Below, piece after piece: positions 33,408 to 40,522 of a stretch of DNA of 43,714 bases; the stretch's first letter is position 1; each line of letters begins with the position of its first letter. The notes below the pieces were generated by a model. It was not told the DNA's origin. It was given only the letters and a program-made list of their open reading frames with translations, and made no database searches. The stretch is from an uncultured delta proteobacterium (GTDB lineage: Bacteria > Desulfobacterota > Binatia > UBA9968). The position numbers and the translations under genes are program-made. The stretch is taken from NCBI GenBank assembly GCA_963755715.1, contig CAVWLW010000047.1:1-43714 (forward strand), read 5' to 3'.

Positions 33408-33872
33408 ATGAATCGATTGTTAAGAGTTGTGGCAGCATTGATTTATCTGAGCCTGGCGCTGTCGCCGGTTATGAGTTACGCGCAGCCAAGGACTCCTGCT
33501 CCGACGATTACCGTCTACAAGACACCGACCTGAGACTGTTGTGATGGCTGGATGAGCCATCTCGAAAAGAACGGCTTCAAAGTCGAAAAGAAAATTGTCT
33601 TTGGCAAAGGCTTCACGGACCTCAAGCGCAAGCACGGCGTGCCGGAAAAGCTTTTCGCCTGCCACACTGCGCTGATCGAAGGCTACATTGTCGAGGGCCA
33701 TGTGCCAGCGGATCTGATCTACAAACTGTTAAAGGAAAAACCGCAGGTGCTCGGACTCGCGGTCCCGGGCATGCCCGTCGGTTCACCGGGCATGGAAGGC
33801 GGCAAGCCTGAGCCCTATGAAGTTTTGACCTTCGACAAGAGCGGCCGGACGACTGTGTATGCGATGCGGTAG
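33408..33872 (+). CDS. DUF411 family secreted metal-binding/thioredoxin-like protein, probable selenoprotein (UGA 33531-33533)
   Basis: GGAGG RBS, signal peptide, VYKTPT-UGA-DCCDGW aligns to family VYKxPxCGCCxxW; CHTA, EGHVPA, GLAVPGMPVGSPGME. Confidence 0.88.
33543..33561 (+). promoter_or_regulatory. bacterial SECIS-like hairpin
   Basis: GATGGCT-GGATG-AGCCATC, 7-bp stem, loop starts with G 16 nt after the UGA. Confidence 0.75.
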
Positions 33873-33900
33873 AAGAACGAAGTGTTGGAGTAATGGAGTG

Positions 33901-34902
33901 ATGGGAAATCTGAAGATTGCTCGCCTGATTGCAGCCATAGTGTTGGCGCTCTGCGCCGCTGCGCCTTCACTGGCTCAGGAGAAAAAGAACATTCGCATGG
34001 TCTTTGTCAGCCTGGCGTGGAATAGCGAGCTGCCGTTTCGTGCGGCGCTGGCGCGCGGCTATTTCAAATCCCAGGGACTGCAGATCGAGCCGATTCTGAT
34101 TCGCGGCGGGCCGGCAGCAATCGCCGCCTTGATTTCCGGGGAAGTTGATTTTGCCAGCATCGGCGGCGCGCAAGCGATTTTCCGCGGCAAGGCGCGCGGT
34201 TTGGATTTGGCGATTATTGGCTGTATTTCCAGCACGACCAATTACATCCTGCTCGGCAATAAACAGACGCGCACGGTCGAAGAACTGAAAGGTAAGCCCA
34301 TCGGCATTACCGGCGCCGGCACCTATTCGGAATTCGCCGTTAAGGCGTTTTTGAAAAAGAACAATATCAATCCGGATAAAGACGTCGTACTACGCGCCAT
34401 CGGCGGCACGGTATTGCGCGCGGCGGCGATCGAGAAGGGGATCATCGCGGCGGCGCCGTTTTCGACGGAAGACGCGGTGCGGCTCATCAAAGCCGGCTAT
34501 TCGGTGATCAGCAACATGAACGAATCTTTGGGCATCCCGCAAAATATCATTGTCACCCGCAATGAAGTCCTGGAGAAGTACCCGGAAACCAGCAAGCGGG
34601 TTTTGAAGGCGTATATCCAAGGTATCCAACTCGCCAAGTTCAACAAGAAAGAAGCGATCAAAGCGGGGTATGACTCGGGGATGCAGGGTGAGCCCGATGT
34701 CGTCAGCGCAGCTTGGGATCTCTACTCGCCCGGCCTGACCGCCGATTTGTCGATCGCGGTGCCGGGTATCCAACAGATGCTCGACGAAGATATTCGCGCC
34801 GGCTTCGTCGACAAGAACTTCACCGTCGATCGGGTGATCAACGACCGACTCTTAAAGGTCGCCCAACAGGAACTAAGGGCCGAAGGAAAGCTCAAACAGT
34901 AG
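33901..34902 (+). CDS. ABC substrate-binding protein (NMT1/SsuA/TauA-like)
   Basis: Signal peptide, RGYFKSQGL, AALISGEVDF, ELKGKPIG. Confidence 0.88.
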   Translation: MGNLKIARLIAAIVLALCAAAPSLAQEKKNIRMVFVSLAWNSELPFRAALARGYFKSQGLQIEPILIRGGPAAIAALISGEVDFASIGGAQAIFRGKARGLDLAIIGCISSTTNYILLGNKQTRTVEELKGKPIGITGAGTYSEFAVKAFLKKNNINPDKDVVLRAIGGTVLRAAAIEKGIIAAAPFSTEDAVRLIKAGYSVISNMNESLGIPQNIIVTRNEVLEKYPETSKRVLKAYIQGIQLAKFNKKEAIKAGYDSGMQGEPDVVSAAWDLYSPGLTADLSIAVPGIQQMLDEDIRAGFVDKNFTVDRVINDRLLKVAQQELRAEGKLKQ

Positions 34903-34906
34903 GGGC

Positions 34907-35920
34907 GTGATGAAGCTTTGCAGTTCGGTTATTCGGCTCTCCGTATGGGTCCTATATGTCCTATTGGCCCTATACGCCGGCGCGTCATCCGCGCAGGAAA
35001 AGAAAAATCTGCGGGTGGTATTTACCGGCCTAGCGTGGAACAGCGAGCTACCGTTTCGCGTCGCGCTCGCGCGCGGCTTTTTCAAGGCGCAGGGACTAGA
35101 AGTCCAGCCGATCTTCGTGCGCGGCGGGCCGGCGGCTCTGGCCGCGCTTTCTTCCGGCGAAGTCGATTTTGCCGAGATCGGCGGGGCCCAAGCCATCATG
35201 CGCAGCCGGGCCCGCGGCCTCGACGGTGTCATCATCGGCGCGATTTCGAACGCGACGAACTACCAGATCGTCGGCAGCAAGTCGACGCGGACCCTCGAAG
35301 ACATGAAAGGCAAGATCGTCGGAGTTACCGGAGCAGGCGCGTTTTCCGATTTTGCAATGCGAATATTTCTACGGAGAAAGGGCATTGATCCTGACAAGGA
35401 TGTTACGTTGCGCGCCATCGGTGGCAGCAACCTACGCGCCGGCGCGTTGGAAAAGGGCATCGTGGCGGCGGCGCCGTTCGCGCCGGACGATACCGTGCGA
35501 CTCACGCGTCTCGGGTTCCCGATGCTCGCCAACTTGAGCGACACGCTCATTATCCCACAAACAATCTTAACCTCGAGAGTCGATTTCTTGGAGAAAAATC
35601 CGGAGACGAGTAAGCGCTTTTTGAAAGCGCTGATTCTTGGAATCCAGCTCGCTAAATTCAACAAGGCCGACGCGATCAAAGCAGGATTCGACGCCAAGCT
35701 GCAAGGCGAAATCGAGCTCGTCAACCAAGCCTATGACTTGTATGCGCCCGCGCTGAGCGGCGATTTGTCGGTCAATGTGCCGGGTCTTCAGTTTATGCTC
35801 GACGAAGATAAGCGCAACGGCTTGGTCGACGGCAAGTTTACCTTGGAGCGCGTCGTCAACGACAAGACTCTCAAATTGGCGCAGCAAGAGCTGCGCGCGG
35901 AAGGTCGGCTCAAGCCGTAG
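34907..35920 (+). CDS. ABC substrate-binding protein (NMT1/SsuA/TauA-like), tandem paralog
   Basis: Shares LAWNSELPFR, RGGPAA.AAL.SGEVDFA and AQQELRAEG with the previous gene. Confidence 0.88.
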   Translation: MMKLCSSVIRLSVWVLYVLLALYAGASSAQEKKNLRVVFTGLAWNSELPFRVALARGFFKAQGLEVQPIFVRGGPAALAALSSGEVDFAEIGGAQAIMRSRARGLDGVIIGAISNATNYQIVGSKSTRTLEDMKGKIVGVTGAGAFSDFAMRIFLRRKGIDPDKDVTLRAIGGSNLRAGALEKGIVAAAPFAPDDTVRLTRLGFPMLANLSDTLIIPQTILTSRVDFLEKNPETSKRFLKALILGIQLAKFNKADAIKAGFDAKLQGEIELVNQAYDLYAPALSGDLSVNVPGLQFMLDEDKRNGLVDGKFTLERVVNDKTLKLAQQELRAEGRLKP

Positions 35921-35923
35921 GCC

Positions 35924-36340
35924 GTGGAAGCGGAAACGATCGCACCGGCGATTGCATTGCGACAGGTGTACGCGCACCGGCACCCCACGACGGACGACTG
36001 GAGCATCGGCTGGACTGTCGAAAACAAGAAGGCTCAATCACTTAAAATTTCTTCCGTGCGCTTGCCGCACGGACAGTTCAAAGCGCAGGAACGAAAGTTC
36101 GAGCCCGCGCTGAATTTGACCGGCGGGGCCAGCGCGGAATTTGAAACTTTAGTTCATTGCAAAGAGCCGCCTGGGCTGGTCACTGAGAATGCTTTTGTGA
36201 TTTTCTACGTCAGTTGGTTGAATGCGTCGTGGCGGATTTTTGTGCGCGTCCGGGTCGAGGTCGATGCGCAATTGGCCCCCGCAACAGCGGTCGAATCGAT
36301 TACCACGCAGAGAGTCGGATTCTCGGAGAGCACCGCGTGA
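35924..36340 (+). CDS. hypothetical protein (beta-rich)
   Basis: 138-aa ORF starting 3 nt after the previous stop. Confidence 0.7.
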   Translation: MEAETIAPAIALRQVYAHRHPTTDDWSIGWTVENKKAQSLKISSVRLPHGQFKAQERKFEPALNLTGGASAEFETLVHCKEPPGLVTENAFVIFYVSWLNASWRIFVRVRVEVDAQLAPATAVESITTQRVGFSESTA

Positions 36341-36377
36341 CCGCTTAAACAAACTATTGAAAGGATCGGATGCGATC

Positions 36378-36599
36378 GTGGCTGGCAAAGAGGAAGATCT
36401 CTATATCCTGAAACGCATGCGTGGTTGACACAGCAACTGAGGCCTCGGCTTCGAAGAGACCACGGGTATGGTCTCCAACACGGTGAAGATGGATCAGAAG
36501 GATGTCGTCGCAGCGCTCAAACGCTTGAAGGCAAATCATAGCGACGATCCGGAATACAAAAAGCTAAGAAAAGATTTGCCGAGGGAGTGGCCGATTTAA
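36378..36599 (+). CDS. putative 73-aa selenoprotein with two in-frame UGA (U-H-S-N-U)
   Basis: GTG start; MAGKEEDLYILKRMRG-U-HSN-U-GLGFEETTGMVSNTVKMDQKDVVAALKRLKANHSDDPEYKKLRKDLPREWPI-TAA; fills the gap between flanking genes. Confidence 0.65.
36456..36475 (+). promoter_or_regulatory. bacterial SECIS-like hairpin
   Basis: GAGACCA-CGGGTA-TGGTCTC, 7-bp stem, G-rich loop 22 nt after the second UGA and 34 nt after the first. Confidence 0.6.
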
Positions 36600-36632
36600 T
36601 TCAGTTTCCAGTTTCGAGTTTTCACTGATTGG

Positions 36633-37406
36633 CTAAACACGCGCCTTGGTCAGACGTACTTTTGGTTGGCGAAGCTTTAAATCTGATACACCACTCCAGA
36701 ATTCTCTTTTTCCCGTCATCGCCTGCACATGACCATCCCATTCCAGCGTGAATGCGGTTAATCCTAGCTTCACTGCGGCGCGGACTTTGTTTTGTGTTGT
36801 TTCGTCTATTGCTAACTGGCGAATCGCATCGATCTGTCGGCTGCCATGGCCTTCGTCTTCTTCGGCATGAAGTTGGTAGGTTTCCGCTGCGCGCGCCGAG
36901 AAACCGTAGTGGCCCGTAAGCTCGCGGTAGACCTTTTCGGATATTTTGCCGGCGCCGCCGAGTTGGCTTTCGACAAAGGCGAGCATGGCGACGCCTTCGA
37001 GCGCAGAACGGCGCTGGCAACAGCCGATGATCATTTCGATTGCGGCCAAGGTTCCCGGCGCAGGCTCGGCATTGTCGGCTTCTTCCCGCGCAATCCCGCC
37101 CTCCTCAAGAAACTGCAGCATGATATCGACGTGGGTGCGTTTGCCGCCGAGCTCTTCCATGAAATTTTCCAGAACCGTGTTCATCACGGCGTATGCTTTA
37201 TCGCTGACCGCATTGACGGCCATATAACCGAAAAAGATCGGGTTAGTGCGGACTCTTAAATAGTGTTGAACTTCACCTAAAATAATCTGCTCCCGCGACC
37301 AGCGGTGCTTGATGATGCCGTCGAACCAAGGATGCTGCTCCGTCGACACCTCGGCGGCGTATCCCCAAAGCTCATCGACAAATTCATCTGGCGTCATAAT
37401 ATGCAT
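36633..37406 (-). CDS. TenA/PqqC/CADD-like heme-oxygenase-fold redox protein
   Basis: HPWF, ENFMEELGG..THVD, VE.Q, LHAEEDEGH putative di-iron ligands. Confidence 0.85.
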   Translation of the reverse strand: MHIMTPDEFVDELWGYAAEVSTEQHPWFDGIIKHRWSREQIILGEVQHYLRVRTNPIFFGYMAVNAVSDKAYAVMNTVLENFMEELGGKRTHVDIMLQFLEEGGIAREEADNAEPAPGTLAAIEMIIGCCQRRSALEGVAMLAFVESQLGGAGKISEKVYRELTGHYGFSARAAETYQLHAEEDEGHGSRQIDAIRQLAIDETTQNKVRAAVKLGLTAFTLEWDGHVQAMTGKREFWSGVSDLKLRQPKVRLTKARV

Positions 37407-37881: not shown

Positions 37882-38136
37882 GCTTGGCGCGCCATTATTG
37901 TTTCACTTCGCTGGATAAAAAGAAATATTTACCTCCATTAGCACCAGCTCGCATGCTCCGTGCGTGGCTGTCGAGCGGTTTCGCAGCATAGGCGGCTTCA
38001 AAGGCCAAATGGTTTCTGTTAGCTGTGAAATCATGGTTGGACGCTGCTCGCACGGGTATCTTTCGAGAAATCTCGGGAAATTCTTTCGCCGCGATGAGGG
38101 ATTCCGATTGACTGGTCAGCAAAATATAATCTGGCC

Positions 38137-40522
38137 GATGTGGGCAGCGGGCCGATGGTTTTCGGTCGGTGCTTTCATCGCGGTAATGTTTGCGATGGCC
38201 GCTCTCGCGCCTGGAGCTTTAACGGCGGAGTCTTCGCCGGGCCCTGCGAAACCGCCACTCGCCGCAATCCCGCTCACCGACGTCGCTTCCGAAGCGGAAT
38301 CGGTCACCTTCGCATTGCGCGACATACAGTCGGATCTATCATTCGATCGCAGCACCAAGGCGATCGCCGATCAGTTGCCGGCGCTGACCCGTGAGATCGA
38401 CGGTCGCTTGGTTGAGAGCCGCAAGATCCTTGGGCAAAATCCGTCGATCGAAATGCTCCTCAGTCTTGAGGGAGAGTGGCAGCGTCTGCGTCGTGAGTTG
38501 TCCGAATTAAACAGCGCTTTGACTGGCCGGATCAACGACCTCGAACGCTACGTCGCGCAGATCGATCAGCTCGGCAAGATCTGGGATGAGACCTTAGCTT
38601 CGGCCAAGGAATCGAACACGCCGCCGGAAATACTTGAGCGCATCCAGAACGTCATCAACGAGCTCCGACAAGGACGTGCAAGCGTAGACAAGCAACGATC
38701 GCGCTCGTTGACGACGCAAAATCGCGTGGGGGTTCAGGATGCGCGGATCGCCGGCGTGCTGAGAGCGATAAGTCAGGCACGCGAGCATGTGCTGGATCGT
38801 CTGTTTCTCCGCGACGGCGCTCCGCTCTGGAACCGCGCCCTCTTTTCCCGCAGCGCGCAAGAACTGCAAGAAGAAAGCCTCAGCTCGTTTTCTACGCAAT
38901 GGACCGCGCTGAGCTCGTACGCCGATCGCCAGGCGGTACGCCTTGCGCTCGGCATCGCCGTTTTCATCGGATTGGCGGCGGGGTTTTATTGGACACGCCG
39001 GCGGCTACGCCGGTTGTCGGCCGAAAACAACAATCACATTCTGAAGACGTCCATGTTCGAAACGCCGATGGCCACGGCTCTTCTCCTATCGCTGCTCGGG
39101 AGCCGCTGGCTCTACGCGCAAGCGCCGCGGCTATTGTGGGTCCTAGTTGGCGCGCTCGCGCTGATTCCGAGCGTGATCATCGTCGGGCGCCTCATCACAC
39201 CGGCGCTGCGTCCGCTGCCCTATGCATTGATCGCGTTCTTTTTTATCGACCAGCTTCGCTTGCTTGCCGCCGCGATACCGTTCTTGCCGCGCCTGCTATT
39301 CCTAGTGGAAATGCTCGGCGCGATTCTGCTTTCGCTCTGGCTGGTCCGCTCGCCAAAGCGGCGGCAATTGTGGATTTCGGCGGAACCGGACGCGCGCCCG
39401 TGGACCACGTTTGTCGGCTACATGGCATTATCGATCTCGTTCACAGCTTTTCTGGCCAATGTCCTGGGGTACGTCACATTGGCGAATCTGCTCGGCAACG
39501 GCTTGCTCAAAAGCAGCTACCTAGCGTTGATACTGTACGCGTTCGTCGTGGTTTTAGACGAGCTCGTGCAGATGGCGCTGATCTCGCGGCCGCTTGCCGC
39601 CCTCGGCGCAGTCAGCCGGCATCGGCCGCTGCTGCATCGTCGGATACACCGCGGCCTGCAGCTGCTGGCCGTCGTTTTATGGGTGTTGGGAGTGCTGCAA
39701 CAGCTTTTGCTGCGTGACCTATTGTTCAGTGCTGCTCAAGAATTTTTAACCGCCGAGCTCAGCATCGGATCGATTCACATTTCGCTCGGTGACGTGCTGG
39801 CCTTTTGCATCACCGTCTGGGCCGCTTTCGCCCTGTCGCGCTTTGTTCGTTTCCTTCTGGAAGAAGATGTGTATCCGCGGGTTCACCTCAAGCGTGGACT
39901 CTCCTACGCAATCTCCAATACGCTTCATTATTGCATCTTGGTGGTCGGCTTTTTTTTCGCGGTGGCGGCACTGGGATTCGACATGACCCGAGTGACGATT
40001 CTCGCCGGAGCTTTCGGCGTCGGAGTGGGTTTTGGATTGCAGAATATCTTTAATAATTTCATCTCGGGCCTGATCGTGCTGTTCGAGCGCCCGATCAACA
40101 TCGGCGACGTGGTCCAGATCGACGATGCTTCGGGCGTGGTCGAGCGAATCGGCATTCGCGCCAGCGTCATTCGCACCACAAACGGTTCTGAAATCATCGT
40201 GCCCAACGGAAAACTGATTTCCGAACGTTTGATCAACTGGACGCTTTCGAATCGGCAACACGGGATCGAACTGCCCGTCGCAGTGGCGCAGGACAGCGAT
40301 CCCAAACGAGTGATCGCGTCATTGGAAGGAGCGGCGGTCGCGCACCCTCTGATTATTAAAGATCCTCCGCCTCAGGCCCTGGTCGTGAAGCTGGGACCCG
40401 ATTCCCTCGGCTTTGAGTTACGCGCCTGGACCGACCACAGCGAGGAGTGGATGCAGATCCGCAGCGACCTGGTCATTGCCATTAGCTCCGCGTTGGCGGC
40501 GGAAAAAATCGCGATTCGCTGA
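38137..40522 (+). CDS. large mechanosensitive channel protein (MscS/MscK-like)
   Basis: Coiled-coil N-domain, multiple TMs, GVGVGFGLQNIFNNFISGLIVLFERPINIGD, IIVPN; start uncertain. Confidence 0.9.

Follow-up and report, generated by a model that had tools for sequence, protein, structure and literature searches.

Two conserved in-frame UGA codons, proposed to encode selenocysteine, in a small four-helix protein gene next to a CADD-like oxygenase gene in Binatia

SelL is an animal selenoprotein with two selenocysteines (Sec, U) in a UxxU diselenide redox motif on a thioredoxin-like fold. The canonical bacterial SECIS, as represented by E. coli fdhF and the bSECISearch consensus, is a stem-loop that lies directly 3′ of the UGA and inside the coding sequence. 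Its spacing in E. coli fdhF is 11 nt. Known bacterial double-Sec families include the metal-binding family NF041115 (UxxU), FmdB TIGR02605 (UxxU), TsoB NF045694 (UxxxxU) and MbdU NF045648 (CU) (PMC13188914). The same article describes a bacterial SECIS (bSECIS) model with a loop of 3–9 nt, a stem of 4–16 bp and a G within the first two loop positions, placed 16–37 nt from the UGA and with an MFE of −7.5 kcal/mol or lower (PMC13188914).

We analyzed a 43,714-nt stretch of DNA, here called the window, from an uncultured delta proteobacterium of the Binatia (contig CAVWLW010000047.1). Read from the window sequence, a 73-codon frame runs from GTG (36378–36380) to TAA (36597–36599). The frame opens with GTG and has 16 sense codons before the first TGA; CAC AGC AAC, the second TGA, 52 sense codons and TAA then follow. 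The preliminary description of this locus had reported a frame with UGAs at 36426 and 36438, and it is present as reported. Our read-through peptide agrees with the one given there in everything but the start codon, which is GTG. The 7-bp hairpin that it placed at 36456–36475 is also present, with a loop that begins 34 nt past the first UGA (UGA1) and 22 nt past the second (UGA2). A scan of positions 35700–36800 for promoters and terminators found nothing. The features are listed in Table 1.

Table 1. Features of the locus, in window coordinates
Feature	Position	Strand	Remarks
Gene of 138 residues, no Pfam/NCBIfam match, predicted 8-strand beta-sandwich	35924..36340	+	AF2 pLDDT 92; TGA stop
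Shine-Dalgarno-like AAGGA	36361..36365	+	12 nt before the GTG start; sequence reading
Small-protein CDS, Sec proposed at codons 17 and 21	36378..36599	+	GTG start, TAA stop
UGA1, proposed Sec17 (codon 17)	36426..36428	+	TGA in 123/123 homologous DNAs; aligned with an invariant Cys of the Cys forms
UGA2, proposed Sec21 (codon 21)	36438..36440	+	TGA in 123/123; aligned with the second invariant Cys
Hairpin A: UGAGGC / loop CUCG / GCUUCG, 6-bp stem, variable 4-nt loop	36438..36453	+	RNAalifold; −7.5 kcal/mol
Hairpin B, proposed SelB-binding SECIS: GAGACCA / loop CGGGUA / UGGUCUC, 7-bp stem	36456..36475	+	−9.2 kcal/mol
Gene of 257 residues, heme-oxygenase-like dimetal enzyme, CADD-like (PF14518/PF03070)	36633..37406	−	Family match; convergent

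No Pfam or NCBIfam family matched the window protein at E ≤0.01, for NCBIfam with the UGAs read as Cys, and 10 homologues with Cys at the UGA positions (Cys forms) had no credible match at E ≤1. The preliminary description had likewise not recognised the family, and it had expected a small helical redox or metal-binding protein. The AF2 model has four helices (pLDDT 87.6), of which helix 1 covers residues 4–21 and has U17 and U21 at its end. In the model, the two Sec of U-x-x-N-U would be separated by a single helical turn where helix 1 ends. A Foldseek search of the PDB with the small protein gave no significant match (best E 0.8, TM ≤0.57). Helix-turn-helix regulators appeared only among these non-significant matches, and a helix-turn-helix DNA-binding domain of the LysR, MarR or Lrp type was rejected. 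The ESM Atlas returned nothing usable for a Cys form.

Like NF041115, TIGR02605, NF045694 and NF045648, the small protein has two close Sec, as proposed, in a short motif, and Cys homologues of it exist; a SECIS structure just downstream is presumably a further likeness. However, the motif here is U-x3-U and lies in a helix of a small all-helical protein, and none of these NCBIfam models matched. With SelL it shares two Sec close enough for a diselenide, so that a low-potential redox couple is conceivable. It differs from SelL in fold (a four-helix bundle here), spacing, domain of life and SECIS type, and the likeness is one with no homology shown. UxxxU is absent from the table of 119 families of prokaryotic selenoproteins printed in a 2026 article (PMC13188914). 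The main texts of three articles (PMC13188914, PMC12013277 and PMC13326102) have 0 occurrences of the string "UxxxU". Among the articles listed for UxxxU, for selenocysteine in Binatia, and for 4LQX or heme-oxygenase-like diiron enzymes together with selenocysteine, none was seen to describe the family. We regard the small proteins as a new family of an already known type, a putative and so far undescribed selenoprotein family with the rare double-Sec motif U-x3-U.

A word-indexed search of 5.8 billion proteins returned 166 relatives of the small protein. Of 301 genomes from the same class, searched in all six frames, 43 carry the frame at full length, each with exactly two TGAs, and these stand at the same two positions in 43/43. 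The 43 carrier genomes belong to 12 genera and 5 families, with matches at 42–79% protein identity. An extra weak match in genome G047 (E 0.003) was unrelated. A metagenome scan confirmed 459 relatives; the best 80 of the 459 have TGA at both positions (80/80). The 43 genomes and these best 80 of 459 metagenome loci make up the 123 homologous DNA sequences referred to in this work, and no indels were found across the TGA region in any of them. The motif common to the 43, also free of indels, is [G/S]-U-x-x-N-U-[G/S]-x-[G/S]-F-E-E-T-[T/A]-G-M-V-S. The homologues have a Met start 12–16 codons upstream, with AGGAG- or GGAGG-type motifs preceding the ATG.

Codon-level analysis was performed on the 113 unique sequences. 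Before, between and after the TGAs, amino acids are conserved while synonymous sites vary. The invariant Asn between the TGAs is written AAT 87 times and AAC 26 times. Synonymous entropy is 1.98 bits for the Leu at −6 and 2.40 for the invariant Arg47, for which at least five codons are used. Such protein-level conservation with free synonymous change on all sides argues that the frame is translated across both UGAs. It is the conservation across homologues, rather than the single sequence, that takes this beyond chance, and the Sec-form sequence is under strong purifying selection. The preliminary description had looked to homologues with TGA or Cys at both positions, and to coding-type conservation on both sides of the TGAs, for support; both were seen, with TGA in the 123 DNAs and Cys in the distant homologues described below.

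Contigs of soil metatranscriptomes from two studies span both TGAs, with no change listed there; DNA carry-over is possible for these libraries. A diverged relative was also seen in RNA-library contigs of two soil studies (X16 record 7, 385 nt, and X20 record 14, 1079 nt) at a depth of 17–21. Its loose-end consensus reads ...U-R-S-N-U-R-R-D-F-E-E-T..., and it aligns to the window at 36449–36480 only, which is the ultra-conserved stretch of hairpin B.

A profile built from the 43 proteins was searched against 1.84 billion representative proteins and gave 127 matches. Among the 24 of these 127 that were fetched, 22 have a C-x3-C aligned exactly to U17/U21. In the Cys-form alignment both Cys columns are invariant, as are F25, T28, M31, R64, P68 and P72 (window numbering). 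These Cys forms come from Chloroflexota, Sulfolobaceae and Hodarchaeales. We also collected 56 archaeal Cys-form loci, mostly of soil Thermoplasmata, plus one of Nitrososphaerales and one of Bathyarchaeota. The Cys homologues are continuous proteins over the UGA stretch and keep the same spacing.

The preliminary description had proposed a search of the genome for selA, selB, selC and selD. We found selA (617 bits), selB (416 bits), selD (over the cut-off, with one TGA) and, by aragorn, a tRNA-SeC(tca). The genes selD, selB and selA adjoin on the minus strand of contig C3 (71086–75411), and the in-frame TGA of selD reads G-U-A-A-K. Among the 43 carrier genomes selA was found in 41; the other two have fragmented assemblies with a completeness of 92% and 96%. 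Because selA occurs widely in the class (247 of 301 genomes, a tally that includes two flagged unpublished), its co-occurrence with the small gene is only weakly informative. TGA has kept its meaning as a stop in these organisms. It is the small gene's own terminator in 49 of the 123 sequences, so it is not globally reassigned, and the gene upstream in the window also ends in TGA (36338–36340).

A second gene in the window has an in-frame TGA. This DUF411/CopG-like gene (33411–33872, plus strand) has its TGA at 33531–33533, and the part after the TGA matches Pfam at E 7e-26. The part upstream has a signal-peptide-like N-terminus and reads ...VYKTPT-U-DCCDGW..., in which the Sec would stand at the first Cys of a C-x-C-C motif. 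A 7-bp hairpin with the loop GGAUG starts 9 nt after this TGA. The gene is a candidate Sec-containing DUF411.

Two hairpins emerged from RNAalifold on 43 sequences and from pair counting on all 123. The 5′ arm of hairpin A opens with UGA2, so that this codon is also the first 3 nt of the hairpin; hairpin A was absent from the preliminary description. The loop of hairpin B is CGGGNA across the Sec forms, with C, G, G, G and A invariant. Hairpin B taken alone has a folding energy that was equalled by 1 of 200 shuffles. The fold of the whole 81-nt region is unexceptional (z −0.94). In the Sec forms full pairing was found in 123/123 for hairpin A and 122/123 for hairpin B, and in the archaeal Cys forms in 0/53 and 1/53, respectively. 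Overall 99.9% of cells are paired, compared with 29–53% when the 3′ partners are slid.

The preliminary description had suggested a covarying hairpin as support. The hairpins are conserved, but no covariation was seen: compensatory double changes occur in 0 of 13 pairs, in stems that are nearly invariant. In the shuffle control 464 of 500 reach the observed value, and this control is uninformative because the stems barely vary. One-sided changes preserve pairing in 26 cases and break it in one cell; all those in hairpin A preserve pairing.

Synonymous sites in the stems behave differently from those around them. The stem B codons GAG, ACC, ACG and GTC have zero synonymous entropy, and the stem A codons GGC, GGC and TTC are nearly frozen. 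At four-fold sites within the stems the same codon was found in 113/113 (ACC), 112/112 (GTC), 96/96 (ACG), and 106/107 and 108/109 (GGC). In contrast, variation is seen in the codons that directly flank the stems (GAA/GAG, TCN) and in those of the loop (GGN). The stem conservation partly overlaps the conserved peptide FEETxGMVS. The persuasive RNA evidence is that of the frozen synonymous sites in the stems; further support comes from the single changes that preserve pairing and from hairpins that are not fully formed in the Cys forms. A competing hairpin picked out by eye (GGCCUC...GAGACC) is not conserved in loci L028, L052, L054, L057 and L058 and was rejected. An Rfam scan of 36200–36800, SECIS models included, gave only a chance match to a CRISPR repeat (E 9).

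We compared hairpin B by its values with the bSECIS constraints as published in PMC13188914. Its loop has 6 nt with G in second place and lies 22 nt from UGA2 and 34 nt from UGA1, its stem has 7 bp, and it folds at −9.2 kcal/mol, all of which lies within the constraints for both UGAs. One SECIS for both codons had been raised as a possibility in the preliminary description, and the fit at both distances agrees with it. Like the canonical bacterial SECIS, hairpin B is a stem-loop directly 3′ of a UGA and inside the coding sequence, with a G at loop position 2 followed by another G, and stem, loop and distances of this size. Unlike in the canonical arrangement, a single SelB-type hairpin here stands behind a pair of UGAs separated by 12 nt, another conserved hairpin that includes UGA2 lies between, and no Rfam SECIS model matches.

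Judged from its anatomy, hairpin B would be the SelB-binding SECIS. The loop of hairpin A in the window, CUCG, is without a G in its first two positions and falls outside the bSECIS rule given in PMC13188914; the role of hairpin A is a conjecture for this reason. It is probably a foldable spacer that holds UGA2 in a stem. With the ribosome at UGA1 and hairpin A folded, 9 + 2 = 11 unpaired nt would lie between UGA1 and hairpin B. With the ribosome at UGA2 and hairpin A unwound, 15 nt would lie between UGA2 and hairpin B. With these two spacings, one SECIS could serve both codons.

The two UGAs could also be read as another amino acid, for example as Trp by a near-cognate tRNA-Trp or through a local code change. 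UGA read-through by tRNA-Trp is an established phenomenon. Three JGI proteins (P0002–P0004), on contigs of 920–1130 nt, have Trp at both positions, and the preliminary description had counted Trp homologues as evidence against Sec. Such proteins do exist, but TGG was found at neither position in any of the 123 homologous DNA sequences. We read the Trp forms as gene-call artefacts for this reason: they look like calls made with TGA as Trp, and such proteins are what gene calling under a TGA=Trp table would yield on these contigs. Distant homologues, moreover, have Cys and not Trp at both positions, TGA ends the same gene in many of its homologues, the full Sec machinery is present, and the conserved downstream hairpin fits a SECIS. 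Taken together, these observations make a reading of the UGAs as another amino acid, such as Trp, very improbable.

Two further database proteins, from ENA (P0022 and P0215), read CAVDGAIEG or CAVDAAIEA at the UGA stretch. They look like frame-hopping gene calls because these peptides match the +1 frame of the TGA stretch, as compared with locus L023. No collected locus encodes P0002–P0004, P0022 or P0215 under table 4.

Most database relatives are shorter, with 43 residues (from Met31) or 51 residues (from just after UGA2); two of the 43-residue forms stand in NCBI as "hypothetical protein [Candidatus Binatia bacterium]". These lengths would be expected if only the downstream frame were translated and the UGA stretch were a leader or short uORF with a regulatory RNA, such as an attenuator. 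The extreme nucleotide conservation of the hairpins is also what a regulatory RNA would show. However, entries of this kind are the standard output for any unrecognised selenoprotein, since gene callers stop at a UGA that they do not recognise. Protein-level conservation, with synonymous variation and without indels in the 123 sequences, extends over the first 16 codons and over the 3 that separate the TGAs, and the Cys homologues cover the same stretch continuously with the same spacing. The AF2 model is confident over the full length, helix 1 included, and a ribosome-binding motif precedes the upstream start. The hairpins, furthermore, are not fully formed in the Cys forms. A leader with a separate downstream frame is consequently a very unlikely account of the locus. 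Two in-frame stops in a short frame ordinarily suggest decay, but a pseudogene or an assembly or sequencing error is a negligible prospect when 123 independent assemblies and the RNA-library contigs of two studies share both TGAs and the sequence is under strong purifying selection. Both UGAs, on the sequence evidence, very probably encode Sec.

The small gene has conserved neighbours on both sides. In 42 of the 43 bacterial loci the gene directly upstream, in the same orientation, is a homologue of the 138-residue gene. The fold search with this protein returned only generic Ig-like or beta-sandwich matches (E ~1e-3, low TM), and the ESM Atlas returned unnamed clusters. The CADD-like gene, a conserved neighbour that the preliminary description did not mention, lies downstream in convergent orientation in 40 of the 43 loci, with 66–90% identity. 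Because it is convergent, the enzyme is not in the same transcript as the small protein in bacteria. In the archaea, the Cys form is directly followed in 56/56 loci by a distant homologue of the enzyme gene, which is on the same strand and starts within ~40 nt of the small gene's stop. The bacterial and archaeal enzymes are distant homologues with 26–38% identity. In locus L178 the archaeal enzyme matches PF03070 (TENA/PqqC) and PF14518 (Haem_oxygenas_2) and has a C2H2 zinc finger in its N-terminal part; among solved structures PDB 4LQX (E 8e-93) is the nearest to it.

Several other genes were noted nearby. Two tandem genes for SsuA/NMT1-type periplasmic substrate-binding proteins lie upstream in the window (33859–35920, plus strand). 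Homologues were found in 3 of the 43 loci only, the window's own included, which places them outside the conserved module. In four loci of genus g10 (L030, L032, L034 and L037), a frame ~0.5–1.5 kb upstream resembles, by eye, a UbiD-type decarboxylase and stands upstream of the 138-residue gene. The window also has an 852-residue MscK/MscS-type mechanosensitive channel gene (37964–40522, plus strand), which is not conserved beside the module: none of the 43 loci has it in flanks of ~1.5 kb.

The best solved-structure match of the window enzyme is CADD/CT610 4-aminobenzoate synthase (PDB 1RCW, 8VA9) with E 6.5e-12, and the 257-residue enzyme has 1290 relatives at E ≤1e-10. The family of the window enzyme shares with CADD the pattern E...H, E, H-x3-D-x2-H, which is conserved in 38/38 relatives. 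The residues are E85, H92, E146, H180, D184 and H187, which we take to be the CADD metal ligands. In contrast, the sacrificial Tyr27 of CADD aligns with F28, which is invariant in 38/38 relatives of the window enzyme. According to PMC9522330, the Y27F change in CADD abolishes pABA formation. We therefore rejected a CADD-type self-sacrificing pABA synthase acting through Tyr27; with Phe at that position, and given the loss seen in CADD, the window enzyme is not of the CADD type with respect to this residue.

A functional partnership is likely because the small gene and the enzyme gene are linked in both bacteria and archaea, and from the gene neighbourhood we consider the small protein a probable partner of the CADD-like oxygenase. 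A complex prediction with the window enzyme and a Chloroflexota Cys form as stand-in scored 0.00, which is no answer and speaks neither for nor against binding. The most likely role of the small protein would be that of an electron donor with a diselenol/diselenide pair (a dithiol in the Cys forms), or of a metal-handling partner for the oxygenase cofactor. The Sec/Cys pair might serve as a reductant for the dimetal site, as a metal chaperone or as a cluster ligand. Any one specific chemical role among these, suggested by the neighbourhood, is doubtful.

As a whole, we regard it as highly likely that this is a real gene in which both UGAs are Sec, and that its product is a four-helix protein, which probably works with the adjacent oxygenase. 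A further reading is speculative and rather unlikely to hold in full. It would have one SelB hairpin serve both UGAs by means of a collapsible hairpin A, and a diselenide/diselenol mini-protein reduce or metallate the dimetal oxygenase. Jointly with this, the module would be old and would span two domains; its Sec forms belong to Binatia-like soil bacteria, and its Cys forms to Thermoplasmata, Sulfolobaceae, Asgard archaea and Chloroflexota.

The gene is consistently misannotated in public databases, where it is truncated at Met31, truncated after UGA2, given Trp at both UGAs or frame-hopped. The proteins described here would form a new selenoprotein family that is abundant in soil bacteria and has U-x3-U on one face of a helix. 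The locus would offer a natural test case of a bacterial SECIS with two nearby UGAs and may be useful for engineering proteins with multiple Sec. It also provides a lead on a large and uncharacterised clade of CADD/PqqC-like oxygenases, for which the small protein would be a dedicated partner. If the further reading above is right, selenocysteine would for the first time be tied functionally to heme-oxygenase-like dimetal oxygenases.
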